Made by a program: the position numbers and the translations under genes | In this document: piece by piece, positions 17,846 through 63,464 of the stretch | Layout: every line of letters begins with the position of its first letter | Position numbering within the stretch: the first letter of the stretch is position 1 | Notes under the pieces: model-generated | Databases searched by the model: none | What the model was told of the DNA's origin: nothing | The model's input: the letters and a program-made list of their open reading frames with translations, nothing else | Origin: Ascidiella aspersa | Taxonomy: Eukaryota | Length of the DNA: 64,000 bases | Assembly: GCA_963924565.1 (NCBI GenBank) | Contig: OZ004612.1 | Coordinates: forward strand, 26,040,001 to 26,104,000 | Direction of reading: 5' to 3'

Positions 17846-18158
17846 TGGTGTCCCTTTGTGTGATGTCATGTTCTGCCTTCATTGCAACGGCAATAAGTTC
17901 GCCGGTTGTTTTGTTGAAAGTTCCCAAACACGAGTGGCCCGTTAAGCTTGCTTTGGCTGCCTTAAGGTCTTTGTCGCCGATTTCTTCCTCCGAAAGATCG
18001 AATACTTGACTTATGGGATGTTGATTACTGTAATCGCTCGTAATAAGATTTTTCATTTGGGGCCAATCCGTTTCTTTCAAAGGTCTTAAAATCATACCAG
18101 GTAGAATTTCTACTTCATCAGAGTCAAAAAGAGTTTTGCTTAGATTTGGTTGTGTCAT
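17846..18158 (-). pseudogene. 3'-truncated GNAT paralog (inverted copy of 21474 gene)
   Basis: MTQPNLSKTLFDSDEVEILPGM... closely matches the 21474 gene up to RDT, then unrelated; lacks acetyl-CoA motif A and C-terminus. Confidence 0.9.
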
Positions 18159-27050: not shown

Positions 27051-27785
27051 CTAATCCGAGTTATTGAAAAGTTTTTTCGTTTCGGCTTCTGATGGTTGAA
27101 CACGTTTGTAAGTCAATTGACAGGAAGTATGGATTGGAGACAAGTTTAAATCGGGCTTCAATCCTGTCTCACTATCGATGTAATCTGCGTATTTCACCTC
27201 TCTCAGAACCTTGAAGCCTCCATGTTTTAAAGCCTTTTGCGAAAACGCTGAGCTGGCGATCGCCACCACATACTCACAGCCATTTTTACTGCCTTGAACG
27301 AAATCAAAATCGAGCATGGCCGAGATTATGCCTTTGGAACGGTACTCGGCTTTTACACACGCCATGGACCAATACATGTATCGATTGGTGTTTAAATCCT
27401 TGAATACATCACGTGACATGAATTCCGCAAATCTTGCGAGAAAAGGATTTCGTTCCCTAGCGGAGGCATGGTTAATGGCCGATTCACTGATATTCTCTGT
27501 TGTCTTCATAGCAAAGGCAATAAGTTGGCCGGTCTGTTTTTGGAAGGTCCCAAAACAGGCATTGGCCCTGACCATTTCTTCGGCTATCGCGAAGTCCACT
27601 CCTTCGATGTCTTGTTTGGAGAGCTTGAATATATGTCGTATCGGGTGCTGGTGACTGTAATAGCGGTCGATAATGTGTTTTACTTCGGGCAAATCACTTT
27701 CGTTCAACATTCGATATACAAAACCGGGTAAGATTTCCGTTCCTTGGGGTATGAGCTTATCTTTTTCCAAACTGGATTGTGCCAT
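27051..27785 (-). CDS. AANAT-like GNAT paralog
   Basis: Intact ORF; YSHQHPI, CVKAEYRSKGI, LSPIHTSCQL. Confidence 0.9.
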   Translation of the reverse strand: MAQSSLEKDKLIPQGTEILPGFVYRMLNESDLPEVKHIIDRYYSHQHPIRHIFKLSKQDIEGVDFAIAEEMVRANACFGTFQKQTGQLIAFAMKTTENISESAINHASARERNPFLARFAEFMSRDVFKDLNTNRYMYWSMACVKAEYRSKGIISAMLDFDFVQGSKNGCEYVVAIASSAFSQKALKHGGFKVLREVKYADYIDSETGLKPDLNLSPIHTSCQLTYKRVQPSEAETKKLFNNSD

Positions 27786-31506: not shown

Positions 31507-32201
31507 CTATGGTTGAATATGTTTGTAAGCCAGCTGACATGAAGTGTGAATTGGTGAAAGTTTCAAATTGGGCTTCATTTCAGTTTCGGGGTCGACGTAG
31601 TCGGCATATATCACTTCCCTTACCACTTTAAAACCCAAACGTTTCAAAACTTTTTGTGAGTAGGTTTTGAACTGGCCACAATCACGAAATAATTCCCGCC
31701 TTCATTTCTGGTTTGCTGCATTTCGAAATCGATCATCGCGGTGATTATACCTTTGGAACGGTATTCCTCTTTTACACAAGCCATGGATAACAAGAAATAT
31801 CGGCTGGCGTTTAAGTCAGCAAATACATCCATTGTCAAAACTTTCAAAAATCTCGTCACTGCGGCCTTTCGCTTTCTGGCAGCATGTATGGTGTCACCAT
31901 TATTTTTCTCATGTCTTGTCTTCATGCCACAAGCAACTAGTTCGCCGTTTTGCAAGTCAAAAGTTCCATGACAAGAGTTGTCGATCAGCATTTCTTCAAC
32001 TGCCGCGAGGTCTTCGGCTTCTGTTTCTTCAATAGGTAGCCTGAATGTTTGATTTAAAGGGTGCTGGTTACTGTAATTGCTGGTGAACAGACTTTTAATT
32101 GCGGGCAAATCCGTTTCGTTCAGCTTTCTGTATAGCATTCCAGGTAATATTTCTACACCTTCAGGAAGACTTCTAACTTTCCACATATTTGGTTTTGTCA
32201 T
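31507..32201 (-). pseudogene. AANAT-like GNAT with one frameshift at ~31667
   Basis: After VASS the family frame resumes shifted: TYSQKVLKRLGFKVVREVIYADYVDPETEMKPNLKLSPIHTSCQLAYKHIQP-stop (31507); lesion lies in an A4 run. Confidence 0.85.
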
Positions 32202-38322: not shown

Positions 38323-39021
38323 TTAATTTGAAGGATTTACACTTTTGTACACCAACTGGCATGAAGTGTGAATTGGAGACAGCTTTAAATCAGGTTTCAA
38401 TCCAGTTTCGGGATCTATAAACTCGGCGTATTTCACTTCCCTCAGCACTTTAAAACCCAGCCGTTGAAAAGCGATTTGAGCGTAAATGGAACTCGGGATA
38501 GCAACCACGTATTCACAACCCTTGTTTCTGGCGTGGATTAATTCTAATTCAAGCATAGTCGTAATTATGCCCTTTGAACGGTATTCGGCCTTGACGCATC
38601 CCATAGAGCCGTACATGTATCGACTGGTGTTCAAGTCAGAGAAAACGTCGCCTGAAAGGAACTTTAGAAATCGCATTTCCGGGGAGTTTTGCTCTATAGA
38701 AGAAATGTGACTGTGTCCTTGAGTGACATCGTGTATCGTGTTCATTATAACAGCAATAAGTTCTCCAGTTCGTTTTTCGAAAGTCCCCAAACTAGCATTG
38801 CTCCTAATTCTCTTTTCAACTGCCACTTCGTCCTCCTTTCCTATGTCTTCTTTTGAGAGTTTAAAGATTTTTCTTGCTGGGTGCTGGTAACTGTAATTGC
38901 TTCCAATAAATTCCTTCACCTTCGACAGATCTTTTACGTTCAAGAGTCTTAATATCAGTCCAGGCAGGAGTTGAACACCTTTATGAAACAGCTGAATTTC
39001 TCCCAAAATTGATTGTGTCAT
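38323..39021 (-). CDS. AANAT-like GNAT paralog
   Basis: Intact ORF; YSYQHPA, GCVKAEYRSKGI, LSPIHTSCQL; an in-frame upstream ATG at 39084 also exists. Confidence 0.9.
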   Translation of the reverse strand: MTQSILGEIQLFHKGVQLLPGLILRLLNVKDLSKVKEFIGSNYSYQHPARKIFKLSKEDIGKEDEVAVEKRIRSNASLGTFEKRTGELIAVIMNTIHDVTQGHSHISSIEQNSPEMRFLKFLSGDVFSDLNTSRYMYGSMGCVKAEYRSKGIITTMLELELIHARNKGCEYVVAIPSSIYAQIAFQRLGFKVLREVKYAEFIDPETGLKPDLKLSPIHTSCQLVYKSVNPSN

Positions 39022-40195
39022 ATTTGTTAGTAGGCTATGTACTATGTCTTTCTTAATATATACTATGCCTGATAGCAACAGCATATTTGTTAACTTAACT
39101 CAATTTGAAACAGTGAATTAACACATTAAAACGTTGCCAATTATTTTAACTCTATTTTCTGGCAACAAACGCGATAAAAAACAACTTTTTTTGACAGACA
39201 TATAGCCTTCACTCAATGATCTCAGCGCATTCGGTATAATTTATCACAAATAAATTGCAATTCAGCTTTTCAAATAATTATTTACCAAGGATCACCGACT
39301 TGACAGTGTTATTAGGAGCCTCAGCGGACAGAAAGTTAACTTAACTTGTTTGCCTCGTTAACGCTTTTGCTGTTTTACTACTAACACGTGTTCGTTGGTG
39401 ACACGTTCTGTCGACATTCGTGCAGTTTAGTTCCGCTTGTTTACATTCCGAGCACTATCTTGTGAAAGGTGGTAGAACTTTTGTCCACACCAGGACAAGT
39501 CAAGTCATTTTGAATAAGTAGCAGTCCCAGTCAAGTCATAATATAGCAATACCGCTACTATAAAATGATAAATGATAAACTCCAACATAGTGCAAGTAAA
39601 ACTTCTTCGTGCAAAACCAGGATAAATAACTCAAATATTTTCGGTCGTCATTCAATTTTATTCCACTTGATAACATTCGGGAAACTATCTTGTGAAAGTT
39701 TGTTGAATGTTCGTCTACACCAGGACTTTCTTTACTATTTGCTTTAGAACTGTTAGGGGGACGTAAATGTTAAAAAACATCGTGGATTGGATGTAACACA
39801 TATTTTAAAACTATCTTTACAATGGACTAGGCCAGTGATTCTCAAACTGGGGTCCGCGAGACAATTTTCTTGGACCGCGAAGCACCTAACAAAAAATCAA
39901 CACGACGCTCCTAAAGAAGAAAATCATTTGTGCAATAAAATTTTCAGGCAACTTACTTTTCCAAACCAACCTTAACCAACGCAATAATATTAACTATGCC
40001 GGACAGAAGAAAGGCCTCCAGACTCATGCTTCCATTCTTCGAGTTGGATTGTGCATTGTGACGTCATAGTGTTGCATCGTGCTAATGAGAATTGTTGCGT
40101 TTTTACAGCTTGCTGCGCTGCCACTGTGGCACTGTACGGTCACGGTTTTTAAACTGTTCGAGATTGCTTCACTCAAATAAAGTGATTCGTAAGAG

Positions 40196-41751: not shown

Positions 41752-42471
41752 ATGGCGCAACCAAGTTTGGAAACTAATGAAGGAGTAGAAATCCTACCAG
41801 GAATGAAGTATAGAATGTTGAACGAAATGGATTTACCCGAAATTAACGACATCGTTGCAGATAATTACAGTTATCAACACCCGATCAGGCAAACATTCAA
41901 TCTATCAAAGGAAGACATCGGAGACAAGGACATCGTGGGAGTTAAACAAATGCTGGCGAGCAAATCTTGTTTTGGAACTTTCCACAAACAAACTGGTCAG
42001 CTTGTTGCTTTTGCAACGAAGTCTGTTCACGACAAATCGAAAGGGGACACCATTCATGCCGCCAGAGAGCGAAACGTTTCAGTGGCGAGATTTTTAAAGT
42101 TTCTGTCAGGTGACGTATTTTCCGAACTAAACACCAACCGATACTTGTACTGGTCCACGGCTTGTGTGAAAGAAGAATACCGTTCCCAAGGGATTATAAC
42201 GGCTATGATTGATTTCGAATTGAAGCACGCCGGAAATAAAGGATGCCAATACGTTGTTGCCATTGCCAGTTCTATATATGCACAAAAGGCTTTGAGACGC
42301 CAAGGCTTCAAAGCTTTGAGGGAGGTGAAATATGCCGACTACGTCGACCCTAAAACTGGGATGAAGCCGGAATTAAGCTTGTCTCCAATCCACACTTCGT
42401 GTCAGTTGGTGTACAAAGCTATACAGCCATTAGAAGCCGTAATACATAGTATTGTAAACAAGCCATTTTGA
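41752..42471 (+). CDS. AANAT-like GNAT paralog
   Basis: Intact ORF; YSYQHPI, CVKEEYRSQGI, LSPIHTSCQL; last codons overlap a MITE end. Confidence 0.9.
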   Translation: MAQPSLETNEGVEILPGMKYRMLNEMDLPEINDIVADNYSYQHPIRQTFNLSKEDIGDKDIVGVKQMLASKSCFGTFHKQTGQLVAFATKSVHDKSKGDTIHAARERNVSVARFLKFLSGDVFSELNTNRYLYWSTACVKEEYRSQGIITAMIDFELKHAGNKGCQYVVAIASSIYAQKALRRQGFKALREVKYADYVDPKTGMKPELSLSPIHTSCQLVYKAIQPLEAVIHSIVNKPF

Positions 42472-46182: not shown

Positions 46183-46729
46183 ATGTAGACGACTGGAGAT
46201 CGAATTTCTGGTGAACCCTAAGAGACACGGGGGGCACGGGGGGCATCTTAACACAAGGACCTTACACACCCTGCTTTGTCCTGCCTAACTGCTGAATGCG
46301 CCAATCGCAACCAGATTTCCTGCATCTGGTTTTGGTTAGAAAAACTTTTCTTCCAAAAAGTTGGACGACGCTTGACCAAATAAAATATATATTTACGCAA
46401 ACATAAAGATTTGGGTAAAGCGTCTTATAATAGCTCGTTTATATCGTTAACGTTCGTGAAAAACTGCATAACCTGGTTAAGCAACATAAGTATTTATCTA
46501 ATCTAAGTTTGCATATTTTAAATCTAAGAGAATAACGTGCTCACGACGCTTTATTACACAAAACGAACTAAAAAGTTGTGACAAAGAGTTTCTTAAAACA
46601 CATGCTAGGAAGTAAACCCATATTCCGGCTCAGCAGATAAGTTTGGTGTTTCGTGAATGGCCTATAAAAGCCCTAAATAGTGTTGGATTGCAAAAAATAG
46701 TGTTTGAATTGCCTAAATAGTGTTGGATT

Positions 46730-49700
46730 TTCAAAATAATATCATTTGATTCTTTAAAACCAATTTTCAGTTATTTCCAACCAAACATTAAAAAACGATT
46801 TGTATTTTTTAATTGCATCAATAATAATAGTATAGCGCCAATATAATTGAGGTAAACACTTACCGGTATGTAAGGAGCATCGCTTTCCGCTTAAAGACAG
46901 GAAGCTTAGATTGAAAACGCATTCGGGAGTTGCTATCAGCCTCGCGTTAAGCATCTGCGTTCAGTACAAAAGCACACGCTGTTTACGTTTTATTCTCATC
47001 ACTAGCACACTCCGTAGAATTTATGTAAATGTAGATTGTGCACACGGCCATGTTATTAATGGTTACACTTTGTTCGTGCGTGTTAAATCATTTGGCGTGT
47101 CCTGAAATATCATCTCGCTTGTGGCACGCGCACGCTTGCCAGGGGTTGCCGACCACTGATGTAGATCGTGCATACGGCCATGTTATTGAATTCTGGACAG
47201 CTAACATGTTTAAAAATAAAATATAATCATTCTCTCATATGGGTTAACGCCTATGGTTTGCTATACTTTTGCCAGCTTTTTTTCAATTTTACCATGCCTT
47301 AGTCGGTGCAATCACTGTTAAATCAGACTTTTAATCTGTTGTTGCGAGCATTATGCAAAACTCTTTTACCTGTCTAGTACGCCAATTTTGAATTCGAAAG
47401 TTTTGCCAATTTGAACAAAATAAACGCAGTGTTTTTAAGATTTAATTTTTCATGGCGCCATGTCATGACGTAACTTTGTAACGTCATCCCTAATGATGCA
47501 TTCAACTTTAGTACTTTGCTCGCTGCGGTTCTTATACAGTTTTAAGTTTTGCAGGTCTGCTGTTGATATGTTTGGTTGGACCAATATGCGAAACAGGTGC
47601 CTCCAGATTTCGCACTTAAATTTGCGGCGGTGAAGTATTCGTTTTTGTAAGATTTTCCTAACAAAACCTCTTTCTAAAAGGCAAGTCGCATACACGTTTT
47701 AAGAAAAGGTTCTTAAAAATGTATCTAATCGGCATTTCTGATATTTTGGACCAATAAAGCAGGTATCGTATGTCTTCTTTGTTTTTAATTCCAGCCGACC
47801 CAGGTCATGGTAAACTCGAAAGCATTTTAGAGGCCCTCAAAAAAAACATTTGAGAACCCCTGGCTTAAGTGTAGCTCTCAAGTCATGGTGTAATCCCACA
47901 AAAAATGGTTTTGAGATTAATACGAGTAATATTAAACAAGCGAAGTGGAAATAAGTTTTTTCTTATTCAAAATAATATCATTTGATTTTTTTTAAACTAA
48001 TATTAAGTTATTTTCAACCAAACATTAAAACAACGATTTGTTTTTTTTAATTGCATCAATAATAATAGTATAGCGCCAATATAATTGAGGTAAACACTTC
48101 CCGGTATATAAGGAGCATCGCTTTCCGCTTAAAGACAGGAAGCTTAGATTGAAAACGCATTCGGGAGTTGCTATCAGCCTCGCGTTAAGCATCTGCGTTC
48201 AGTACAAAAGCACACGCTGTTTACCTTTTATTCTCATCACTAGCACACTCCGTAGAATATATGTAATTGTAGATCGTGCATACGGCCATGTTATTAATGG
48301 TAACACTTTGTTCGTGCGTGTTGAATCATTTGGCGTGCCCTAAAAAATCATCATCTCGCTTGTGGCACGCGCATGCTTGCCAGGGGTTGCCGACCACTGA
48401 TGTAGATCGTGCATACGGCCATGTTATTGAATTCTGGACAGCTAACATGTTTAAAAATCAAATATACTCATTCTCTCAAATGGGTTAACGCCTATGGTTT
48501 GCTATACTTTTGCCAGCTTTTTTTCAATTTTACCATGCCTTAGTCCAGTGGTCGGCAAACTTTTTTTGTCTCGGTCCTAAGTACTTTTTCGAGAGCCATT
48601 GAAGGCCCACTAAGCAAAACCTCTACGAAACAGTTGCGGATTTAGGATATTTAATTTGAAGGTCAAATATTACACAGCGCCTTGATGGCCGAAACACTAC
48701 CAGGCCATAATGTAAAACCTACAATAAAACGAAGGCCCACAACTACATGATAACACTAAACTATTCAAAAGTAACTCGCGGCCCACTAAAAATGACTCTG
48801 CGGCCCACATTTGGGCCGCGGCCCACAGTTTGCCGACCACTGCCTTAGTCGATACAATCACTGTTAAATCAGACTTTTAATCTGTTGTTGCGAGCATTAT
48901 GCAAAACTCTTTTACCTGCCTAGTACGACATCTTCAAAATCGAAATTTTGCCAATTTGAACAAAATAGACGCAGTGTTTTTAAGATTTAATTTTTCATGG
49001 CGCCATGTTTTGACGAAACTTTGTGACGTCATCCCTAATAATGCATTCAACTTTAGTACTTTGCTTGCTGCGGTTCTTGTGCTGTTTTAAGTTGTGCAGG
49101 TCTGCTGTTGATAAGTTTGGTTGGACCAATATGCGAAACAGGTGCCTCCAGATTTTGCACTTAAATTTGCGGCGGTAAAGTGTTCGTTTTTGTAAGATTT
49201 TCCTAACAAAACCTCTTTCTGAAAGGCAAGTCGCATACAAGTTTTAAGAAAAGGTTCTTAAAAAATGTATCTAATCGGCATTTCTGATATTTTGGACCAA
49301 TAAAGCAGGTATCGTATGCCTTCTTTGTTTTTAATTCCTGCCGACTCGGGTCATCGTAAACTCGAAAGCATTTTAGGGGCCCTCAAACAAAATGTTTAAG
49401 AAGCCCTTGCTTAAGTGTAGCGCTCTTTTTTTTTAGTTATTCCCAACCAAACATTAAAAAAAACGATTTTTTTTTAAGTGCATCAATAATAATAGCATAG
49501 CGCCAATATAATTGAGGTAAACACTTCCCGGTATATAAGGAGCATCGCTTTCCGCTTAAAGACAGGAAGCTTAGATTGAAAACGCATTCTGGAGTTGCTA
49601 TTAGCTTCGCGTTAAGCATCTGCGTTCAATACAAAAGCACACGCTGTTCACTTTTTATTCTCATCACTAGCACACTCCGTAGAATTTATGTAAATGTAGA

Positions 49701-50935
49701 TCGTGCATACGGCCACGTTATTAATGGTTACACTTTGTTCGTGCGTGTTAAATCATTTGGCGTGCCCTGAAAAATCATCTCGCTTGTGGCACGCGCACGC
49801 TTGCCAGGGGTTGCCGACCACTGATGTAGATCGTGCATACGGCCATGTTATTGAATTCTGGACAGCTAACATGTTTAAAAATAAAATATAATCATTCTCT
49901 CAAATGGGTTAACACCTATGGTTTGCTATACTTTTGCCAGCTTTTACTCGTAAATTTTTACCATGCCTTAGTCGGTGCAATCACTGTTAAACCGGACTTT
50001 TAATCTGTTGTTGCGAGCATTATGCAAAACTCTTTTACCTGTCTAGTACGCCAATTTTGAATTCGAAAGTTTTGCCAATTTGAACAAAATAAACGCAGTG
50101 TTTTTAAGATTTAATTTTTCATGGCGCCATGTCATGACGTAACTTTGTAACGTCATCCCTAATGATGCATTCAACATTAGTACTTTGCTTGCTGCGGTTC
50201 TTGTACTGTTTTAAGTTGTGCAGGTCTGCTGTTGATATGTTTGGTTGGACCAATATGCGAAACAGGTGCCTCCAGATTTCGCACTTAAATTTGCGGCGGT
50301 AAAGTATTCGTTTTTTGTAAGATTTTCCTAACAAAAACACCTTTCTGAAAGGCAAGTCGCATTCGCGGTTTAATTCTCCAAGTCGCATACGCGTTTTAAG
50401 AAAAGGTTCTTAAAAATTGTATCTAATCGGCATTTCTGATATTTTGGACCAATAAAGCAGGTATCGTATGCCTTCTTTGTTTTTAATTCCTTCCGACTCG
50501 GGTCATCGTAAACTCGAAAGCATTTTAGGGGCCATCAAACAAAATATTTAAGAACCCCTGGCTTAAGTGTAGCGCTCAAGTCATGGTGTTATCCCACAAA
50601 AAATGGTTTTGAGATTAATACGAGTAATATTAAACAAGCAGAGTGGAAATAAGTTTTTTCTTATTCAAATTAATATCGTTTGATTTTTTAAACCCAATAT
50701 TTATTTATTTTAACCAAACATTGAAAAAACGATTTGTTTTTTTTTTAAGTGCATCAATAATAACAGAATAACGCCGATATAATTGAGGTAAACACTTCCC
50801 GGTATATAAGGAGCATCGCTTTCCGCTTAAAGACAGGAAGCTTAGATTGGAAACGCATTCGGGAGTTGCTATCAGCCTCGCGTTATGTATCTGCGTTCAA
50901 TTAAAAATCACGCTGTTTACATTTTGCTCTCATCA
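46730..50935. repeat. Tandem array, ~1.25-kb unit x ~3.2
   Basis: Marker GAGGTAAACACTT at ~46849, 48087, 49514, 50785. Confidence 0.95.
48546..48842. mobile_element. Young hAT MITE in one satellite unit
   Basis: Perfect TIR CAGTGGTCGGCAAACT and perfect TSD ccttagtc; absent from sister units. Confidence 0.95.
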
Positions 50936-51396
50936 GTAAAATAATGGCTGTTTATCAACTCAGCTGTGATAGAACAAACAGTACACAATGGCATACAGTA
51001 AGGTAGTTCTCTTAATTCAACACAGGGCATGCCAGTTATTGAATAAAAATGGTTTTATTTTGTGAATTCTAATACTTTCACCTTATATCTTTCTATTGGC
51101 TTTTGTGTAAAGAATCACAAGCTTTTCAAATATTTTATGGTTATATTGTTACAATGCACACATCACATATATTGAATATAAAGGCTACAACTAATAAAAT
51201 TCAAACGACAACATTTACAGCAAGCTCACTGATAAACAGAAACATAAGGCTATGGTGATTATATATGACATAAATTAACATGAAGATTTTCTAGATTTAA
51301 AAGTATGTGAGGGGTAATGCAGTCAGCTTTTGTGTGTTTATATGTTCTTCCCAGTTCAAATGACCCACAATTGCTATATCTTTTGTATTTCTGAAC

Positions 51397-54300
51397 CTAC
51401 AGTTGACTTTCTGCTATGACATTCCCGTCTTTATTTCTGCTTATTGTAGGAAACTTAATTTTTTTAAGTTTCTTCAATCGAACAGTGCATCTGTCTATTA
51501 ATGTGGAGTAAAGCAAGGGGTTCAATGCACTGTTAATAGGAAGCAAAATACCAGCACTAATAAGATAAACATCATTGGGTAGTGGAACACCAGAAACAGC
51601 CAAGTAAGCAAGCACACACATTGGGATCCAGCAACAGAAGTCAGTAATAAGCAAGCGAGAAATACGTTTTTGCAATTCGCTGTTGGGTTGCTTGTTTCTA
51701 GATTTAGCCATTTTGTTACTTCGTATGTAAATCAGTATGTAAGCCACAAGCATGAAAATGAATAACAGAAAGTTGAGTGTGATAAGAAATACAGAATATT
51801 GCCAAGAAGCGTCATTTGTAGAGGCGAACAGTCTGGGCATGCAAACACTAGTTTCGCCATAATACCCAAATATTCCTTTTATCGGTTGATTCGGGAAGGT
51901 ATCGCTAATTGTTTGAGTGACGTCGTGCCAATGAAGTGACGTCAGGTTATGTGGTTTTATGTTATTGGCTAAATCAACCATCTTTTGTTTAGGGACTTGA
52001 TTAGTTTTGAAAAATCTACTTGAAAACCAAACATGAGAAACAAAATATCCTGAACTGTAATCAAACACAGGCAGTAGTGAAAATAGAAATGCAAATAGCC
52101 AAACACATGCACATGAAATGTAAATCCCTTTTAACCCCATAGTCCTAGTGATGAATGGTTTGTAAACTGTTACAAGCCTAAACGCTGTCATGACAGCCAT
52201 AGTACCCGAAGAGGCCATGGTAGCTAAAACACACAACATCCCAAGAATGCAACAAGAAATACTAGTACGCCAAATTGCGTCAAACGAGCAATAATCTCCC
52301 GAAAACTGCAACCCTTTTATGCTTATTGCAATAAGATAAATCCCCATGAGAAAATCAGCGGGTGCCAAACTAAGCAAAATTATGTAGGTGCTTTTTGTAT
52401 AGTTATCTGCGTTCTTGTTATTTACAATGTCCCTTATAGTAATAACGACCACCGTTAAGTTCCCGATGCCAGCTGCCAACCCCATTATCCAGAAGAAGGC
52501 TCTGTAAACAGGGTTGGCGATCATTTCCTTTTGATTTGAAAAAGTGGAACTTCGCTTACTTATGGGTGGGCACTCGTCACTTCCATCCGAACATTGAGGG
52601 ATTCCATCTTCAACCAAGTTGATGTCGACTGACAGGGGATTTCCATTCCGACAGTAAAACCTTGTTTCGCTGCATCGCGTTGCATTCTCGTCGGATCCAT
52701 CGTCGCAGTCTACTATTCCATCGCAAAAGTTGTTGACATCGATGCTTCTGAGCGCTCCACTGGCGCATTCGTGTCGCTTTGGGCATAATCCACGTTCGTC
52801 GCATGAAAGAGGAGACACATATACCCCCTTACATGCATCTCCAAACCTGGCTCTAATACCCATGCAATCCACATTGCAGAACTTGGGTCGAGGCTCACAA
52901 CCATTGCATTCATCTTCCATTTCGTAACATTCAGGTCTTCCATCGCATTTTGTGGCACGTGTGAAGGGTGAATAGTAGTTGGGTCTGCAAAATATGCGAT
53001 CTTCTTCACCCTTATCCTGAGCTAGTCCGCAATGTTTCATGTTAGATTCACCTGCACACTTTACTTCTGGGTTACAAAGCACTTTGTCCATATTCACGCA
53101 GTCTGTTGCATTGTGGCAATGCACTTGGTTTGGAGGGCAAGTGTCTCTTGCGTCGCCTAATATATTATGGCAAACTGTTTGGTCGTCACACAAACATTCA
53201 TCGGAAAGATCATAGCAGTCTGGAACCCCGTTGCAAACTTGCTGTTGGGAAACAACCAGTCGTTTGTCCAAGCACAAGAAGCAAACGAATTGTCCATCAA
53301 CGAAACATAGATCTGACCTGTCAGCACACTGAGGTTCATCGTCATAGATATTTATCTGGGGTAAAACGCAAATTCCAGTTCTGCCTGTTCCTGAGCATTT
53401 AAAACCCAGCCCGGTTTCGATTTCATCATCATTGCAACGAATATGTTGGTTGTCGCAATATTCATGGGTGGAAATGAGATTACCGTTACTGCATCGTGTC
53501 AAACTTGTGTGTGTTCCCTGCTCACACACCCACTGACCATTACAAACCCTGTCTCTCCTCCCTTCACACGGCCCCATAAGTTGTCGGCAAGTCGTGTTGT
53601 GGATCGCTTGATACTTGCTTTTGCTTGTCTCGTTGAAGCAATAAGTTACGCTAACCCACTTACCGCGAACAAATACCCTCCGATCATCGCAAGGCTCCAT
53701 TCGTCCGACGCACTGGATTCTACCGTCAGCCACTTGTTGCTGGCAAGCCCCGCAAAACCACTTGTCGCTAACGTCTAAGCAACGGGGCGGTCCACTGTCA
53801 CATATATGCTGCTCGCGAACACACTGAAGCCCATCGTTGCAATGTACCAAACCACTTCCACAGCTGCTGCAGTTCGTTTCATCACTCCAATCGTTACAAT
53901 TCTTCCGCCCATCGCACCACGAACATGCGCGAAAGCACCTCTTATTATCGCACTTCTTCGCTCCTGGTTTGCAAGTTGTGCAGTTTATCTCATCACTCCA
54001 GTCGTAACAAGTATGCCACCCATCGCACCACATACTCTCAGGAACACACTGCTTCCCATCATCGCACTTCTTTGCTCCTGATTTGCAAGTTGTACAGTTC
54101 GTCTCATCGCTGTGATCATTACAAACCTTTCTCCCATCGCACCACTTACTCTCAGAAACACACTGCTTCCCATCATCGCACTTCTTTGCTCCTGATTTGC
54201 AAGTTGTACAGTTCGTCTCATCGCTGTGATCATTACAACCCTTTCTCCCATCGCACCACATACTCTCCGAAACACACTGCTTCCCATCATCGCACTTCTT

Positions 54301-54948
54301 TGCTCCTGATTTGCAAGTTGTACAGTTCGTCTCATCGCTTAAATCAGCACAACCCTTTCTCCCATTGCACCACCAACTTGCGGGAACACACAGCTTCCCA
54401 TCATCGCACTTCTTCGCTCCTGGTTTGCAAGTTGTACAGTTCGTCTCATCGCTGAAATCAGCACAAGTCTGCCACCCATTGCACCACGTACTCTCAGGAA
54501 CACACAGCTTCCCATCATCGCACTTCTTCGCTCCTGGTTTGCAAGTTGTACAGTTCGTCTCATCGCTAAAATCAGCACAACCCTTTCTCCCATTGCACCA
54601 CCAACTTGCGGGAACACACTTGCTCCTATCATCGCACATCTTTGCTCCTCCATTGCAAGTTGTACAGTTTGTTTCATCACTCCTATCGTCACAATGCCAC
54701 CACCCGTCGCACCACTTACTTCCAGAAACACATTGTCTCCCATCATCGCACTTCTTCGCTCCTGGTTTGCAAGTTGTGCAGTTCGTCTCATCACTCTTAT
54801 CGTCACAAGTCTTCAACCCATCACAAACATCAGTTTGGTTGATGCATTTCCCATCTGGCCTGCTACATTCGAACTGATCTCTGGCGCATCTTGCTTTAGC
54901 TCCTATACACAAGGCAAGCAGAGCAGAAACAAAAATTTGCAACTGCAT
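51397..54948 (-). CDS. Intronless LDLa-repeat rhodopsin-class GPCR (GRL101/RXFP-like 7TM, no LRRs), copy A
   Basis: Signal peptide MQLQIFVSALLALCIGAKA; 10 N-terminal LDLa-type modules (8 in the TTC array) plus further LDLa/Cys-rich modules; GNL, LAPADFLMGIYL, TDFCCWIP, PINSALNPLLY; first ATG at 54948. Confidence 0.95.
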   Translation of the reverse strand: MQLQIFVSALLALCIGAKARCARDQFECSRPDGKCINQTDVCDGLKTCDDKSDETNCTTCKPGAKKCDDGRQCVSGSKWCDGWWHCDDRSDETNCTTCNGGAKMCDDRSKCVPASWWCNGRKGCADFSDETNCTTCKPGAKKCDDGKLCVPESTWCNGWQTCADFSDETNCTTCKPGAKKCDDGKLCVPASWWCNGRKGCADLSDETNCTTCKSGAKKCDDGKQCVSESMWCDGRKGCNDHSDETNCTTCKSGAKKCDDGKQCVSESKWCDGRKVCNDHSDETNCTTCKSGAKKCDDGKQCVPESMWCDGWHTCYDWSDEINCTTCKPGAKKCDNKRCFRACSWCDGRKNCNDWSDETNCSSCGSGLVHCNDGLQCVREQHICDSGPPRCLDVSDKWFCGACQQQVADGRIQCVGRMEPCDDRRVFVRGKWVSVTYCFNETSKSKYQAIHNTTCRQLMGPCEGRRDRVCNGQWVCEQGTHTSLTRCSNGNLISTHEYCDNQHIRCNDDEIETGLGFKCSGTGRTGICVLPQINIYDDEPQCADRSDLCFVDGQFVCFLCLDKRLVVSQQQVCNGVPDCYDLSDECLCDDQTVCHNILGDARDTCPPNQVHCHNATDCVNMDKVLCNPEVKCAGESNMKHCGLAQDKGEEDRIFCRPNYYSPFTRATKCDGRPECYEMEDECNGCEPRPKFCNVDCMGIRARFGDACKGVYVSPLSCDERGLCPKRHECASGALRSIDVNNFCDGIVDCDDGSDENATRCSETRFYCRNGNPLSVDINLVEDGIPQCSDGSDECPPISKRSSTFSNQKEMIANPVYRAFFWIMGLAAGIGNLTVVVITIRDIVNNKNADNYTKSTYIILLSLAPADFLMGIYLIAISIKGLQFSGDYCSFDAIWRTSISCCILGMLCVLATMASSGTMAVMTAFRLVTVYKPFITRTMGLKGIYISCACVWLFAFLFSLLPVFDYSSGYFVSHVWFSSRFFKTNQVPKQKMVDLANNIKPHNLTSLHWHDVTQTISDTFPNQPIKGIFGYYGETSVCMPRLFASTNDASWQYSVFLITLNFLLFIFMLVAYILIYIRSNKMAKSRNKQPNSELQKRISRLLITDFCCWIPMCVLAYLAVSGVPLPNDVYLISAGILLPINSALNPLLYSTLIDRCTVRLKKLKKIKFPTISRNKDGNVIAESQL

Positions 54949-56889
54949 GTTATCAGTTTCCAAAATCTCGTGTTAAACTTCTAGTGAAAATATAACGGTT
55001 TAATCGTTAACGAATTTCCACGACTAAAGGTCAACAATAATATGGCAAGAAAATCCATATATTTTGTGTCTCGTAATTCGTTGTAACAAACGTATTCAAT
55101 ACTGTGGGAAAATTTTTAAAAAAAGTAAATAAATGAAACATGTTTAGTCTAAACCTTGCACTACGCAAATAAGTGAGTAGCAGTCTCTTATCGTATTTGT
55201 TATTTGTAAACAAGTTGCTAAATTTAGTGATTGGTAAATCATAGAACTTAATTTTTAACAGAACATGAAATACCAGGACGTCGAAACGTCGATTGATTAT
55301 AAAAAAACTGCTGGATGAGCAACACTCGGTTATACATTATGCCTGGCTGCAATAGCTTATTTCATAAAATACAATGTTAACCTATAACACCTCAACTAAT
55401 CACATACATTGCTATGAAACAATTTAAACTTCACTGAAATGGTGCACTAATGAGAAAAAGGTAAACAAAACCATAGCTAACGTCATGTTCAAATCCACAG
55501 CTACAACAACATAACTCTGTATATATTTTTCCACATTTATCTCGTTTTGTGAATATTCACTCCTGACTGCAACTTTCAATATTTTAAATAACAAAATCCC
55601 CGCAAAGTGAAAACAAAGACTAAAATAATTAAAAAAAAGCAGAAAATTTAAGCACACACCTATTACTATACGAACTTTGTTGAAAAACTACAAATCTAAG
55701 ATAACTATTTATTTCAACAATTGCACGGTTAGCAACATTACATTAGAACACTGCTTAAATATATACAAAGCGTTTTTGAGAGCAAATATCTCATTTCTTG
55801 CTACTACTGTTTTACGTTAGTAAGATATCAACAATAAACACCAGTCGCCGCGTGAAAATCATGAAAAAAATGTTCTTCATTGTGACGTAACACGGATGTA
55901 CACCTGTTGTTCCTGTCGCGTTTTGGGTCGGGCACAAGCAAACGTCTTTCAATCACTTAAAGCAGTGGTTCTTAACCTTTGGTAACCTGTCCAACCCCTG
56001 TGTTATTCTGCAAGCGTTCGTCGAACCCCAAATTTTCGCTTAGTTTTTGTTTCTTCCTCCTAGCAGCTGAAACTGGGCATAATCAATTATCAACTTGCAC
56101 TTATATAGGTTAAATTGGCTCAACTTTCAATCTATAACGTTACATGCCGCACCTTGGCGCAAAAAAGAGCTTACAAAAAATAGCTTGAAATAACAGCAGT
56201 TATGTTCCAGAGAACGTTCTCGCCGAATCCTTGAAAAAAATCTTAAGTTAACAAAATTCTACCTACTTCTTTATTAATTATACGTCTAACTACAACCTCC
56301 AACCATTATCTTTTATCGATTTATTCGAAACGTTTGTCTAAACGACATAGATTGGCGCATTTTTAAAGATACTTGGTCGAGTGACAACTATACCCGTCTA
56401 TTACTCGGTTACTCATTGTTCATTTGGTTCAAGTTAAGTTATGCACTCGCCGACTGTAATATTTATAATGATTAAAGAGCACTTAATTTCATATTTAAAA
56501 AATTTTAGTTTTTTTGCGTGCATCAAATTTCTTTTTTTAATATTACCGATAAAAAATAAAAAAAACTGGAAAAAATATTTGCTAATTCCATTTCGCTGAA
56601 TAGATAATTTATCTCTTATATAAACACTATGAAATAAATATTATTTACCTATAATTTGCACAATAGTTGACTTTAATTTAAAAGGCGATACTAAACATAT
56701 TTTTTCCATTAACTTCTAGATAAGTATAAAAAAAAACGTGCTCACGACGCTTTATTAAACAAAACAGACTAAAAAGTTGTGACAAAGAGTTTCTTAAAAC
56801 ACATGCTAGGAAGTAAACCCATATTCCGGCTCAGCAGATCAGTTTGGTGTTTCGTGAATGGCCTATAAAAGCCCTAAATAGTGTTGGAT

Positions 56890-59670
56890 TTTCAAAATAA
56901 TATCATTTGATTCTTTAAAACCAATTTTTGTTTATTTTCAACCAAACATTAAAAAAACGATTTGTTTTTTTAATTGCATCAATAATAATAGTATAGCGCC
57001 AATATAATTGAGGTAAACACTTCCCGGTATATAAGGAGCATCGCTTTCAGTTGAAAGATAGGAAGCTTAGATTGAAAAAGAATTCAGGAGTTGCTATTAG
57101 CCTCGCGTTAAGCATCTGCGTTCAGTACAAAAGCACACGCTGTTTACGTTTTATTCTCATCACTAGCACACTTCGTAGAATTTATGTAATTGTAGATTGT
57201 GCATACGGCCACGTTATTAATGGTTACACTTTGTTCGTGCGTGTTAAATCATTTGGCGTGCCCTAAAAAAATCATCATCTCGCTTGTGGCACGCGCACGC
57301 TTGCCAGGTGTTGCCGACCACTGATGTAGGTCGTGCATACGACCATGTTATTAAATTCTGGACAGCTAACATGTTTAAAAATGAAATATAATCATTCTCT
57401 CAAATGGGTTAACACCTATGGTTTGCTCTACTTTTGCCAGCTTTTACTCGTAAATTTTTACCATACCTTAGTCGGTGCAATCACTGTTAAATCGGACTTT
57501 TAATTTGTTGTTGCGAGCATTATGCTAAACTCTTTTACCTGTCTAGTACGCCAATTTTGAATTCGAAAGTTTTGCCAATTTGAACAAACTAAACGCAGTG
57601 TTTTTAAGATTTATTTTTTTATGACGTCATGTCATGACGTAACTTTGTAACGTCATCCCTAATAATGCATTCAACTTTAGTGCTTTGCTTGCTGTGTTTC
57701 TTGTGCAATTTTAAGTTGTGCAGGTTTGCTTTTGATATGTTTGGTTGGACCAATATGCGAAACAGGTGCCTCCAGATTTCGCATTGAAATTTGCGGCGGT
57801 AAAGTATTCGTTTTTTGTAAGATTTTCCTAACAAAAACCTCTTTCTGAAAGGCAAGTCGCATACACGTTTTAAGAAAAGGTTCTTAAAAAATGTATCTAA
57901 TCGGCATTTCTGATATTTTGGACCAATAAAGCAGGTATCGTTTGCCTCTTTGTTTTTAATTCCTGCCGACTCGGGTCATCGTAAACTCGAAAGCATTTTA
58001 GGGGCCCTCAAACAAAATGTTTAAGAAGCCTTTGCTTAAGTGTAGCGCTCAAGTCATGGTGTAATCCCACAAAAAATGGTTTTGAGATTGATACGAGTTA
58101 AACAAGCTAAGTGGAAATAAGTTTTTTCTTATTCAAAATAATATCATTTGATTTTTTTAAACTAATATTTAGTTATTTTCAACCAAACATTAAAAAAACG
58201 ATTTGTATTTTTTAATTGCATCAATAATAATGGTATAGCGCCAATATAATTGAGGTAAACACTTCCCGGTATATAAGGAGCATCGCTTTCCGCTTAAAGA
58301 CAGGAAGCTTAGATTGGAAAAGCATTCGGGAGTTGCTATTAGCCTCGCGTTAAGCATCTGCGTTCAACACAAAAGCACACGCTGTTTACCTTTTATTCTC
58401 ATCACTAGCACACTCCGTAGAATTTATGTAATTGTAGATCGTGCATACGGCCATGTTATTAATGGTTACACTTTGTTCGTGCGTGTTAAATCATTTGGCG
58501 TGTCCTGAAAAATCATCTCGCTTGTGGCACGCGCACGCTTGCCAGGGGTTGCCGACCACTGATGTAGGTCGTGCATACGGCCATGTTATTGAATTCTGGA
58601 CAGCTAACATGTTTAAAAATAAAATATAATCATTCTCTCAAATGGGTTAACACCTATGGTTTGCTATACTTTTGCCAGCTTTTTTTCAATTTTACCATGC
58701 CTTAGTCGGTGCAATCACTGTTAAATCAGACTTTTAATCTGTTGTTGCGAGCATTATGCAAAACTCTTTTACCTGTCTAGTACGCCATTTTTCAAATCGA
58801 AAGTTTTGCCAATTTGAACAAAATAAACGCTGTGTTCTCAAGATTTATTTTTTATGACGCCATGTCATGACGTAACTTTGTAACGTCATCCCTAAAAATG
58901 CATTCAACTTTAGTACTTTGCTTGCTGCTGTCCTTGTACAGTTTTAAGTTGTGCAGGTCTGCTGTTGATATGTTTGGTTGGACCAATATGCGAAACAGGT
59001 GCCTTCAGATTTCGCATTTCAATTTGCGCCGGTAAAGTATTTGTTTTTTGTAAGTTTTTACTAACAGAAACCTCTTTCTGAAAGGCAAGTCGCATTCGCG
59101 GTTTAATTCTCCAAGTCGCATACACGTTTTTGAGAAAAGGTTCTTAAAAAATGTAACTAATCGGCATTTCTGATATTTTGGACCAATAAAGCAGGTATCG
59201 TGTATGTCTTCTTTGTTTTTAATTCCAGCCGACTCAGGTCATTGTAAAATCGAAAGCATTTTAGGGGCCATCAAACAAAATATTTAAGAACCCCTGGCTT
59301 AAGTGTAGCGCTCAAGTCATGGTGTTATCCCACAAAAAATGGTTTTGAGATTAATACGAGTAATATTAAACAAGCAGAGTGGAAATAAGTTTTTTCTTAT
59401 TCAAATTAATATCATTTGATTTTTTAAACCCAATTTTTATTTATTTTCAACCAAACATTGAAAAAACGATTTGTTTTTTTTTAAGTGCATCAATAATAAT
59501 GGTATAGCGCCAATATAATTGAGGTAAACACTTCCCGGTATATAACGAGCATCGCTTTCCGCTTAAAGACAAGAGGCTTAGATTGAAAACGCATTCGGGA
59601 GTTGCTATCAGCCTCGCGTTATGTATCTGCGTTCAATAAAAAAGCACACTGTTTACATTTTGCTCTCATC
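56890..59670. repeat. Tandem array, ~1.25-kb unit x ~2.2
   Basis: Marker GAGGTAAACACTT at ~57011, 58252, 59521. Confidence 0.95.
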
Positions 59671-60134
59671 ACTACAATAATGGCTGTTTATCAACTCAGC
59701 TGTGATAGAACAAACAGTACACAATGGCATACAGTAAGGTAGTTCTCTTAATTCAACACAGGGCATGCCAGTTATTGAATAAAAATGGTTTTATTTTGTG
59801 AATTCTAATACTTTCACCTTATATCTTTCTATTGGCTTTTGTGTAAAGAATCACAAGCTTTTCAAATATTTTATGGTTATATTGTTACAATGCACACATC
59901 ACACATATCGAATATAAAGGCTACACAATAAATACAATTCAAACGACAACATTTACAGCAAGCTTACTGATAAACAGAAACATAAGGCGATGGTGATTAT
60001 ATATGCCATAAATTAACATGAAGATTTTCTAGTTTTTAAAAAATGTGAGGAGTAATTCAGTCAGCTTTTGTGTGTTTATATGTTCTTCCTAGTTCAAATG
60101 AACCACAATTACTATATCTTTTGTATTTCTGAAC

Positions 60135-63100
60135 CTACAGTTGACTTTCTGCTATGACATTCCCTTCTTTATTTCTGCTTATTGTAGGAAACTTATTTTT
60201 TTTAAGTTTCTTCAATCGAACAGTGCATCTGTCTATCAATGTGGAGTAAAGCAAGGGATTCAATGCACTGTTAATAGGAAGAAAAATACCAGCACTAATA
60301 AGATAAACATCATTTGGGAGTGGAATACCAGAAACAGCCAAGTAAGCAAGCACGCACATTGGGATCCAGCAACAGAAGTCAGTAATAAGCAAGCGAGAAA
60401 TACGTTTTTGCATTTCGCTATTGGGTTGCTCGTTTTTAGATTTAGCCATTTTGTTACTTTGTATGTAAATCAGTATGTAAGCCACAAGCATGAAAATGAA
60501 TAGCAGAAAGTTGAATGTGATAAGAAATACAGAATATTGCCAAGAAGCGTCATTTGTAGAGGCGAACAGTCTGGGCATGCAAACACTAGTTTCGCCATAA
60601 TACCCAAATATTCCTTTTATCGGTTGATTCGGGAAGGTTTTGCTAATTGTTTGAGTGACGTCGTGCCAATAAGGTGACGTCAGGTTATGTGGGTTTATGT
60701 TATTGGCTAAATCAACCATCTTTTGTTTAGGGACTTGATTAGTTTTGAAAAATCTACTTGAAAACCAAACATGAGAAACAAAATATCCTGAACTGTAATC
60801 AAACACAGGCAGTAGTGAAAATAGAAATGCAAATAGCCAAACACATGCACATGAAATGTAAATCCCTTTTAACTCCATAGTCCTAGTGATGAATGGTTTG
60901 TAAACTGTTACAAGTCTAAACGCTGTCATGACAGCCATAGTCCCCGAAGAGGCCATGGTAGCTAAAACACACAACATCCCGAGCATGCAACAAGAAATAC
61001 TAGTACGCCAAATTGCGTCAAACGAGCAATAATCTCCCGAAAACTGCAACCCTTTTATGCTTATTGCAATAAGATAAATCCCCATGAGAAAATCAGCGGG
61101 TGCCAAACTAAGCAAAAATATGTAGGTGCTTTTTGTGAAGTTTTCTGCGTTTTTTTTATTCACAATATCCCTTATAGTAATAACGACCACCGCTAAATTC
61201 CCGATGCCAGCTGCCAACCCCATTATCCAGAAGAAGGCTCTGTAAACAGGGTTGGCGATCATTTCCTTTTGATTTGAAAAAGTGGAACTTCGCTTACTTA
61301 TGGGTGGGCACTCGTCACTTCCATCCGAACATTGCGGGAAACCATCTTCAACTAAGTTGATGTCGACCGACAGTGGCTTTCCATTACGACAGTAAAACCT
61401 TGTTTCGCTGCATCGCGTCTCATGCTCGTCCGATCCATCATCGCAGTCTACTATTCCATCGCAAAAGTTGTTGACATCGATGCTGCTGAGCGCTCCACTG
61501 GCGCATTCGTGTCGCTTTGGGCATAATCCACGTTCGTCGCATGAATAAGTAGACACATATACCCCCTTACATGCATCTCCAAACCTGGCTCTAATACCCA
61601 TGCAATCCACATTGCAGAACTTGGGTCGAGGCTCACAACCATTGCATTCATCTTCCATGTCGTAACATTCAGGTCTTCCATCGCATTTTGTGGCACGTGT
61701 GAAGGGTGAATAGTAGTTGGGTCTGCAAAATATGCGATCTTCTTCACCCTTATCCTGAGCTAGTCCGCAATGTTTCATGTTAGATTCGCCTGCACACTTT
61801 ACTTCTGGGTTACAAAGCGCTTTGTCCATATTCACGCAGTCTGATGCATTGTGGCAATGCATTTGGTTTGGAGGGCAAGTGTCTCTTGCGTCGCCTAATA
61901 TATTATGGCAAACTGTTTGGTCGTCGCACAAACATTCATCGGAAAGATCATAGCAGTCTGGAACCCCGTTGCAAACTTGCTGTTGGGAAACAACCAGTCG
62001 TTTGTCCAAACACAAGAAGCAAACGAATTGTCCATCAACGAAACATAGATCTGACCTGTCAGCACACTGAGGTTCATCGTCATAGATATTTATCTGGGGT
62101 AAAACGCAAATTCCAGTTCTGACTGTTCCTGAGCATTTAAAACCCAGCCCGGTTTCGATTTCATCATCATTGCAACGAATATGTTGGTTGTCGCAATATT
62201 CATGAGTCGAAATGAGATTACCGTTACTGCATCGTGTCAAACTTGTGTGTGTTCCCTGCTCACACACCCACTGTCCATTACAAACCCTGTCTCTCCTCCC
62301 TTCACACGGCCCCATAAGTTGTCGGCAAGTCGTGTTGTGGATCGCTTGATACTTGCTTTTGCTTGTCTCGTTGAAGCAATAAGTTACGCTAACCCACTTA
62401 CCGCGAACAAATACCCTCCGATCATCGCAAGGCTCCATTCGTCCGACGCACTGGATTCTACCGTCAGCCACTTGTTGCTGGCAAGCCCCGCAAAACCACT
62501 TGTCGCTAACGTCTAAGCAACGGGGCGGCCCACTGTCACATAAATGCTGCTCGCGAACACACTGAAGCCCATCGTTGCAATGTACCAAACCACTTCCACA
62601 GCTGCTGCAGTTCGTTTCATCACTCCAATCGTTACAATTCTGCAACCCATCGCACAACGAACATGCGCGAAGGCACCTCCTCTCATTATCGCACTTCTTC
62701 ACTCCTGGTTTGCAAGTTGTGCAGTTTATCTCATCACTCCAGTCGTAACAATTATTCCACCCATTGCACCACAAACTCTCAGAAACACACTGCTTCCCAT
62801 CATCGCACTTCTTTTCTCCTGATTTGCAAGTTGTTGTGCAGTTAGTCTCATCGCTCCAATCGTTACAACCCTTCCACCCATCGCACCACCAACTTGTAAG
62901 AATACACTGCTTTCCATCATCGCACTTCTTCGCTCCTGGTTTGCAAGTTGTACAGTTCGTCTCATCGCTGAAATCAATACAACCCCTTCTCCCATTGCAC
63001 CATATGCTTGCGTGAACACATTGCCTCCCATCATCGCACTTCTGTGCTCCTGGTTTGCAAGTTGTACAGTTCGTCTCATCGCTTAAATCATCACAGGTCT

Positions 63101-63464
63101 GCCACCCATTGCACCTCAAACTTGCGGGAACACACTTGCTCCTATCATCGCACATCTTTGCTCCTGGTTTACAAGTTGTGCAGTTTGCCTCATCACTCTT
63201 ATCGGAACAATTCCACCACCCGTCACACCACGTACTTTCAATAACACACTGCTTCCCATTATCACACTTCTTCGCTCCTGGTTTGCAAGTTGTACAGTTT
63301 GTCTCATCACTCTTATCGTCACAATTCTTCAACCCATCACAAACATCAGTTTGGTTGATACATTTCCCATCTGGCCTGCTACATTCGAACTGATCTCTGG
63401 CGCATCTTGCTTTAGCTCCTATACACAAGGCAAGCAGAGCAGAAACAAAAATTTGCAACTGCAT
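60135..63464 (-). CDS. Intronless LDLa-repeat GPCR, copy B
   Basis: Same architecture as copy A with 6 TTC-array repeats; 74 aa shorter = 2x38 minus two 1-aa insertions. Confidence 0.95.
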   Translation of the reverse strand: MQLQIFVSALLALCIGAKARCARDQFECSRPDGKCINQTDVCDGLKNCDDKSDETNCTTCKPGAKKCDNGKQCVIESTWCDGWWNCSDKSDEANCTTCKPGAKMCDDRSKCVPASLRCNGWQTCDDLSDETNCTTCKPGAQKCDDGRQCVHASIWCNGRRGCIDFSDETNCTTCKPGAKKCDDGKQCILTSWWCDGWKGCNDWSDETNCTTTCKSGEKKCDDGKQCVSESLWCNGWNNCYDWSDEINCTTCKPGVKKCDNERRCLRACSLCDGLQNCNDWSDETNCSSCGSGLVHCNDGLQCVREQHLCDSGPPRCLDVSDKWFCGACQQQVADGRIQCVGRMEPCDDRRVFVRGKWVSVTYCFNETSKSKYQAIHNTTCRQLMGPCEGRRDRVCNGQWVCEQGTHTSLTRCSNGNLISTHEYCDNQHIRCNDDEIETGLGFKCSGTVRTGICVLPQINIYDDEPQCADRSDLCFVDGQFVCFLCLDKRLVVSQQQVCNGVPDCYDLSDECLCDDQTVCHNILGDARDTCPPNQMHCHNASDCVNMDKALCNPEVKCAGESNMKHCGLAQDKGEEDRIFCRPNYYSPFTRATKCDGRPECYDMEDECNGCEPRPKFCNVDCMGIRARFGDACKGVYVSTYSCDERGLCPKRHECASGALSSIDVNNFCDGIVDCDDGSDEHETRCSETRFYCRNGKPLSVDINLVEDGFPQCSDGSDECPPISKRSSTFSNQKEMIANPVYRAFFWIMGLAAGIGNLAVVVITIRDIVNKKNAENFTKSTYIFLLSLAPADFLMGIYLIAISIKGLQFSGDYCSFDAIWRTSISCCMLGMLCVLATMASSGTMAVMTAFRLVTVYKPFITRTMELKGIYISCACVWLFAFLFSLLPVFDYSSGYFVSHVWFSSRFFKTNQVPKQKMVDLANNINPHNLTSPYWHDVTQTISKTFPNQPIKGIFGYYGETSVCMPRLFASTNDASWQYSVFLITFNFLLFIFMLVAYILIYIQSNKMAKSKNEQPNSEMQKRISRLLITDFCCWIPMCVLAYLAVSGIPLPNDVYLISAGIFLPINSALNPLLYSTLIDRCTVRLKKLKKNKFPTISRNKEGNVIAESQL

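Follow-up and report, generated by a model that had tools for sequence, protein, structure and literature searches.

Mosaic LDLa units in an ascidian receptor family point to a recombining coding minisatellite with likely diversifying selection

Introduction

The closest described relatives of the receptors studied here are the LDLRR-GPCRs of Ciona intestinalis, a family of G-protein-coupled receptors (GPCRs) with 14 confirmed members (Kamesh et al., 2008; PMC2396169). The main text of that paper invokes exon shuffling, proposes lipoprotein-like ligands that act through classical LDL-A repeats, and traces the expressed sequence tags (ESTs) of the family mostly to blood cells; supplements aside, it reports no repeat mosaicism and no selection test. 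Here we describe two tandem genes of this type, gene A and gene B, and the family around them. They lie in a 64,000-nucleotide (nt) stretch of the ascidian Ascidiella aspersa (GCA_963924565.1, contig OZ004612.1, positions 26,040,001 to 26,104,000 of the forward strand), which we call the window, and each carries an array of LDLa units that appears to diversify by recombination.

Two unrelated systems provide precedents for the mechanism. In the fungal NWD proteins (HET-D, HET-E), WD40 repeats are described as being swapped within and between family members, repeat number is variable, and a few interface residues per repeat are under diversifying selection (Paoletti et al., 2007; PMC1805685). 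The zinc-finger array of PRDM9 is described as a single-exon coding minisatellite subject to unequal crossover, gene conversion and concerted evolution (PMC6116924).

The Ascidiella genes resemble the Ciona receptors, as published, in their N-terminal LDL-A repeats, relaxin-receptor-like seven-transmembrane (7TM) part, absence of leucine-rich repeats (LRRs) and lineage-specific expansion. In contrast to the Ciona account, the 7TM part has at least 111 matches in the genome studied here, against 14 confirmed members in Ciona, the array lies in a single open reading frame (ORF), recombination takes place below the level of the domain, and the canonical binding pocket has been lost. As in the fungal account, units are exchanged and repeat number varies; however, the NWD proteins are cytosolic NLRs with WD40 repeats, ten genes and a proven function in allorecognition, while the units here would be secreted LDLa modules on a GPCR in a family of more than 100 genes, with weaker homogenisation. 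PRDM9, as described, shares the single uninterrupted coding stretch and the concerted evolution, but has 84-bp DNA-binding fingers in one gene, whereas here 114-bp extracellular modules occur in a large family with apparent exchange between loci. The family (from Ciona) and the mechanism (from PRDM9 and fungal HET-E) are known already; we did not find their combination in the literature. Our search, with subscription papers and supplements outside it, found only PMC2396169 as a description of the family and no report of repeat mosaicism or selection in it, and the main text of PMC13746493 does not mention LDL or intronless.

Results

Reading the DNA, we found that gene A and gene B are each one uninterrupted ORF from signal peptide through 7TM. 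Together they hold 14 units of 114 bp, eight in A (53863-54771) and six in B (62601-63287). An earlier sequence-only reading of the window counted the N-terminal LDLa unit as 1, and its units A5, A4, A3, A6, A7 and B3 are A4, A3, A2, A5, A6 and B2 in our numbering. The features that the argument needs are these, in window coordinates:

51397-54948, (-) strand: gene A, an ORF of 1183 amino acids (aa) with signal peptide, LDLa array, Cys-rich ectodomain body and RXFP1-like 7TM, without LRRs
60135-63464, (-) strand: gene B, tandem paralogue of A, 1109 aa, 2.7% nt divergence from A downstream of the array
54772-54885, (-) strand: N-terminal LDLa unit (A1 of the earlier reading), outside the shuffled array
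54658-54771, (-) strand: unit A1 (A2 of the earlier reading)
54544-54657, (-) strand: unit A2 (earlier A3), left block of type R, right block of type RKG
54430-54543, (-) strand: unit A3 (earlier A4), left block of type L, right block of type WQT
54316-54429, (-) strand: unit A4 (earlier A5), A3-type left half and A2-type right half
54088-54315, (-) strand: units A5 and A6 (earlier A6 and A7), a recent duplicate pair
53974-54087, (-) strand: unit A7, A5/A6-type left half and A3-type right block
53863-53973, (-) strand: terminal unit A8, 37 aa
62601-63287, (-) strand: array of gene B, units B1-B6
63060-63173, (-) strand: unit B2, left block of A2 and right block of A3

The sequence-only reading had proposed that A4 joins the left half of A3 to the right half of A2, and the sites bear this out: of the informative sites, A4 shares all 10 up to nt 38 with A3 and all 10 from nt 48 with A2, which places the switch between 54392 and 54382. 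A4 is 11 nt from its nearest unit and 1 nt from the two-parent mosaic, and this gain ties with that of A2 as the largest among the 101 family units introduced below. The one base that is private relative to A2 and A3 is found in neither parent but is present in B2. The converse join had been read in B2, which is indeed identical to A2 across nt 9-55 and carries the right block of A3. A7 differs from A5 by a swap of the same kind as in A4 and B2, which had been overlooked, and the proposed duplicate pair A5 and A6 is 3 nt apart. All six pairings of three left haplotypes (7 nt) with two right haplotypes (5 nt) are represented by the units A2, A3, A4, A5, A7 and B2; point mutation is therefore not a plausible explanation. 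A2, A3, A4 and B2 form a four-gamete set, in which at least one unit is recombinant. We rejected any polarisation into parent and child because the set is symmetric, so that recombination is needed for the two chimeras read earlier but two separate events are not, and their direction is unreadable.

Units B1-B4 are 14-17 nt (12-15%) from the nearest A unit, as compared to 2.7% divergence between A and B after the array, and share exact tracts of 47-63 nt with A units, some in shifted register. Identical tracts of 69-82 nt span unit boundaries, and windows that cross a junction show linkage as significant as windows within a unit (p = 0.001 for both); the domain is thus not the unit of exchange, and chimeric domains are a by-product of out-of-register duplication or deletion. 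In-frame unequal crossing-over or gene conversion, as proposed earlier, is supported by the haplotype table and by the family controls and sister-gene chimeras below; placing it in the constant scaffold verges on the tautological. Breakpoints can be placed only in stretches that are identical in both parents, so no scaffold preference can be claimed, and we rejected a scaffold breakpoint hotspot as untestable. The terminal units keep their positions between A and B (A7 is 6 nt from B5, and A8 is 7 nt plus one codon from B6), but across the family (n = 23) terminal units are distinctive only in their last 18 nt.

Formal recombination statistics on these 14 short units give modest support. The pairwise homoplasy index (PHI) is significant for A1-A8 (p 0.0004-0.004) and for the set minus the two terminal units (p 0.0002-0.002). 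For all 14 units p is 0.04-0.05, or 0.15-0.23 with codon permutation, and PHI is not significant for A1-A7, nor for B alone.

To place A and B in their family, we used 106 units of exact 38-aa spacing in 33 genes, drawn from the 37 loci closest to A; 101 of these units are unique, and units with indels (such as A8) are excluded. The two-parent mosaic gain is 3.83 nt per unit, as compared to 2.78 ± 0.14 (maximum 3.37, n = 200) in codon shuffles; in 200 clonal runs that modelled site-specific rates and base frequencies it never exceeded 2.73. Codon linkage decays with distance at rho –0.24, beyond the minimum of –0.16 in shuffles and –0.19 in clonal runs, and four near-perfect mosaics were observed, with at most two in controls. 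The unit sites are saturated (tree length 12.3).

Sister genes elsewhere in the genome show the process at a larger scale. Unit 2 of L049 is the exact join of units 3 and 4 of L039, a mid-unit deletion chimera, and these two genes share exact tracts of 145-434 nt in shifted register. L025 and L026 are 3.2% apart, yet have one and six array units; across close paralogues the number of N-terminal LDLa cores ranges from 2 to 12. Units 4-5 nt apart are found on different chromosomes in genes whose bodies are 10% apart, including a pair at 4 of 114 nt between L024 (C5) and L034 (C2), with bodies 10% divergent; near-identity across chromosomes suggests conversion between loci. For 34.8 of 74 units, where 4.8 are expected, the nearest neighbour belongs to the same gene, and the mean distance between units is 21.6 nt within genes and 28.5 nt between genes. 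Units are homogenised within and between loci, as in concerted evolution.

Individual arrays differ in character. L034 (G000 C2, ~38.57 Mb) has seven almost identical units in which a few toggling sites occur in mixed combinations, an array that looks very young and still shuffling. L092 and L098 contain exact and near-exact duplicate units; they belong to more distant subfamilies (L091-L099 and L086-L089) with 53-60% 7TM identity and their own arrays of 38-41 aa. L078 (G000 C7, ~15.41 Mb) has an open frame of ~1800 aa with a long acidic array whose inspected units, unlike those of the close subfamily, keep W19, D22 and D26. A cluster without 114-bp array units (L058-L075; G000 C2, 35.3-36.7 Mb) comprises about 16 paralogues, 858-880 aa long and tens of kb apart. 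The array is out of frame with the 7TM ORF, or cut off from it, in L031, L032, L038, L043 and L050, which are probably pseudogenes or sequence errors.

Within the units, the six cysteines, together with G23 and D32, never vary, and variation peaks at positions 12-13, 16-17, 19, 24-26, 28, 30 and 34. The variable positions concentrate on the pocket side, with many exposed Trp, Arg, Lys and Tyr. The units share six-cysteine spacing and the S-D-E motif with the complement-type repeats of LRP1, LRP2, LDLR and VLDLR, their best PDB matches, but the pocket Trp and Asp positions are hypervariable here. Mapped by alignment alone (to megalin repeats), position 19 aligns with the pocket Trp of LDL-receptor modules and positions 22 and 26 with the pocket Asp residues; the pocket spacing described for LDLR-RAP is W144/D147/D151 (PMC9804390). 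An aromatic residue at 19 together with D22 and D26 is found in 2 of 101 units, and Asp is absent from position 26 throughout the arrays of A and B. When D or E is also asked for at position 24, which we take to be a pocket acid, the count is 0 of 101. All four acidic calcium ligands (D22, D26, D32 and E33) are present in 21 of 101 units. Judged by its residues, the canonical LDL-receptor lysine pocket is lost in these units, and because of this loss classical lipoprotein-type binding seems unlikely for these arrays.

A codon mixture model assigns 11 unit positions (3, 13, 16, 17, 19, 24, 25, 26, 28, 30 and 34, lysine-pocket positions included) to a class with a nonsynonymous to synonymous rate ratio (dN/dS) of 2.19, with twice the log-likelihood difference at 65. 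The class stands at 2.58 and 1.60 on block-specific trees, and seven of seven recombining null simulations (four discordant trees, dN/dS at most 1) gave 0.74-1.32. When the same codon test was applied to intact paralogues (26 of 29, three being without the anchor motif), the non-repeat ectodomain gave a class at 3.29, and the 7TM and tail gave 1.13 with no clear class above 1; the non-repeat ectodomain therefore also diversifies, beyond the shuffled array. Taken together, these data suggest that diversifying selection on unit surface residues is likely but not proven. Shuffling had been offered earlier as the mechanism of diversity, and it does recombine variants; it does not create them, and they sit at sites of raised dN/dS.

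For the receptor type, a Pfam profile search found 11 PF00057 stretches in A and nine in B, a rhodopsin-class 7tm_1 domain in both, and no LRR family at E ≤ 0.01 in either; a motif search for LxxLxLxxN found none in A. Named homologues at 33-45% identity come from Ciona, Phallusia, Clavelina and Styela, and the best ones (Ciona, Phallusia and Clavelina) have the same architecture. On three features we file A and B under what their sequences indicate is the ascidian LDLRR-GPCR type. We considered identity with GRL101, a type C2 LGR, and rejected it because the LRR domain between LDLa repeats and 7TM is missing. A and B share with GRL101, type C2 LGRs and RXFP1, as those are described, a homologous 7TM, the hinge, the YYG..xC region of the second extracellular loop (ECL2) and an N-terminal LDLa; in contrast to GRL101 and RXFP1, they have no LRRs, an ECL2 insert of ~65 residues and a C-[MI]-P-R motif (PMC6267866; bioRxiv 10.1101/2022.01.22.477343; PDB 7TMW).

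According to the RXFP1 preprint, that receptor signals via hinge and ECL2, and the hydrophobic residue of the ECL2 motif, C-hydrophobic-P-hydrophobic in LGRs, is needed for signalling (bioRxiv 10.1101/2022.01.22.477343). By motif pattern and RXFP1 alignment, the LGR-family form is not what we found here: 65 of 70 paralogues read C-[MI]-P-R at this place (the remaining five are unmatched by the pattern), and C-x-P-[RK] occurs in 80 of 120 database homologues. The receptor would signal by a conserved hinge/ECL2 switch like that of RXFP1. The ECL2 insert relative to RXFP1 lies at 51868-52062 on the (-) strand, and many of the sites that vary in the 7TM region fall within it; it is possibly a second recognition surface.

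In this genome, scoring of 323 candidates against the 7TM part gave at least 111 matches. We fetched 80 of these 111 loci, taking the best 70 and a choice of 10 from the remainder, and 70 of the 80 have an ORF of at least 850 aa.

Discussion

We favour the reading, with a probability of about 0.7, that the arrays are an LDLa coding minisatellite of recombinant mosaics, with likely diversifying selection on the exchanged patches, and that they probably provide a variable ligand-recognition repertoire on a conserved 7TM. The 114-bp units would mispair out of register at meiosis, between alleles or paralogues, and resolve as crossover, with gain or loss of units, or as conversion, with transfer of patches. 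Because a 114-bp unit is a whole number of codons and the reading frame is uninterrupted, the products of whole-unit mispairing stay in frame and keep the six-cysteine spacing. Point mutation would supply new surface residues, some of which selection probably favours, and recombination would reassort them.

Several results weigh against this reading. Of the 2124 triplets that the 14 units gave, the only ones to survive Bonferroni correction have A4 as child (lowest p 6.8e-6, or 0.014 after correction); the corrected p is 0.13 for A4 with A2 and A3 as parents and 0.25 for B2. Family-wide PHI is not significant for the 101 units (p 0.79-0.98), probably because the hypervariable codons are clustered and saturated. 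Congruence of half-units, checked by distances, gives a correlation of 0.36 that is marginally under random codon splits (p 0.04) but not under clonal simulations, and is uninformative. In a distant intronless relative the units are old, at least 30 nt apart, and none of 672 triplets contains a significant mosaic, with imperfect splitting into units; apart from this gene, the only distant one found at full length and present in two near-identical copies, the scan of metagenomes yielded a single fragment. Active shuffling is therefore a property of young arrays and not universal in the family. For selection, spanning-tree pN/pS, the counted ratio of nonsynonymous to synonymous changes, is 0.90-1.06 on a binding face chosen beforehand, falls to 0.50 when the entire unit is counted, and lies at 0.74-1.07 along short edges; we rejected it as proof of selection, since no value is clearly above 1 and relaxed constraint would give similar ones. 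As for the codon test, we built it ourselves on scaled nucleotide branch lengths and set it against only seven null runs; its values could be too high because of short conversion patches and multi-base changes, and the ectodomain value because of indel-rich loops. Among the reads and contigs, which were compared at 95% identity so that alleles are not separable from paralogues, no listed piece bridges a unit junction, and the 15 reads from an RNA run match at 95-99%, with none at 99% identity or above and none in the array. A search across sequencing runs showed no RNA run containing the stretch among those listed, which weighs neither way.

Recombination may be real and yet functionally neutral, with the array a Cys-rich stalk or spacer under relaxed constraint and ligand binding in the ectodomain body or ECL2. 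This account draws on the counted pN/pS of about 1 on the variable face, the wide tolerance of array length (2 to 12 cores), the absence of a full canonical pocket from all 101 units, the presence of all four acidic calcium ligands in only 21 of them, and the variable sites of the ectodomain body itself. We consider it unlikely, because the codon-model class of 2.19 exceeds all seven recombining nulls and because variation lies on the pocket side, with exposed Trp, Arg, Lys and Tyr, while the cysteines, G23 and D32 do not vary. Homoplasy, in which recurrent point mutation toggles a few favoured residues at hypervariable codons, would fit the saturated sites and the family-wide PHI result; however, the common blocks are multi-base and include synonymous sites, 200 clonal simulations never matched the observed mosaic gain or linkage decay, and recurrent mutation cannot yield the long exact shifted-register tracts between L039 and L049, so we hold homoplasy to be highly improbable.

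Errors of assembly or of phasing across a 114-bp repeat could also have produced the mosaics, and the contig pieces listed do not span the array. One whole-genome shotgun run (X10, ~1% read) has near-zero depth at 53926-54387 (0-0.5 per strand, as compared to ~2-8 in the flanks), which is compatible with a different allele, with sampling and paralogues as confounders. Assembly error is nevertheless unlikely, indeed very much so as a full account: the array is merely 0.9 kb within a 33-Mb contig and its frame is intact, the A4 base found in neither parent recurs in B2, the pattern is repeated between separate loci and chromosomes, and each of the 30 bins is covered by contigs from two runs. In lampreys, VLR repeats are rearranged somatically in blood cells. 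If the arrays here were likewise rearranged in blood cells, the assembly would hold one of many versions, and the short modular units, the many paralogous donors and the Ciona haemocyte ESTs would suit this; but the genes are complete, and the 80 loci read contain no empty germ-line locus or cassette library, so we give the idea very little credence.

Returning to the mosaic minisatellite under likely selection, an immune role is favoured by analogy, since the ESTs of Ciona members come mostly from blood cells; chemosensing is possible. A bolder form of the reading, which we offer tentatively and think somewhat doubtful, is a combinatorial non-self GPCR system: more than 100 intron-free genes would share a pool of LDLa patches through exchange across chromosomes, selection would act on a repurposed lysine pocket, and blood cells would carry a repertoire specific to the individual. 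If true, fungal NWD repeat shuffling would have a G-protein-coupled counterpart at the animal cell surface, in the sister group of vertebrates. To our knowledge, tunicates are without vertebrate adaptive immunity, and if specificity follows the array, the family is a testable candidate for the recognition of varied ligands in tunicates. The usual route to a diverse GPCR repertoire is to duplicate genes and accumulate point changes in the 7TM pocket; in this family it is a recombining ectodomain minisatellite that generates diversity, on a 7TM that stays conserved. LDLa modules, a textbook unit of exon shuffling, here evolve by sub-domain recombination without introns. The lipoprotein-ligand idea proposed for the orphan LDLRR-GPCR family is made unlikely by the loss of the canonical pocket.

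Other features of the window

The remaining features of the receptor pair are as follows:

49432-54564: duplicated block behind the A/B pair, 95% identity to 58168-63308, period ~8.7 kb
52537-53862, (-) strand: non-repeat Cys-rich ectodomain of A, with degenerate LDLa modules and variable loops
51397-52536, (-) strand: hinge, 7TM and tail of A; the top solved-structure match is RXFP1 (E 1e-23)

Over their first 177 nt, A and B have four nt differences. Non-coding tandem units of ~1.25 kb, 88-95% alike, flank both receptor genes at 46712-50935 and 56873-59674; they belong to the A/B duplication and could have mediated it. Elsewhere in the window, about seven single-ORF paralogues of GNAT acetyltransferases lie on both strands at 17745-42471, among them 21474-22166, 24314-25027, 27051-27785, 38323-39084 and 41752-42471. 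Two others look truncated (17745-18158 and 31644-32201), and Pfam Acetyltransf_1 is confirmed for one member of the cluster.

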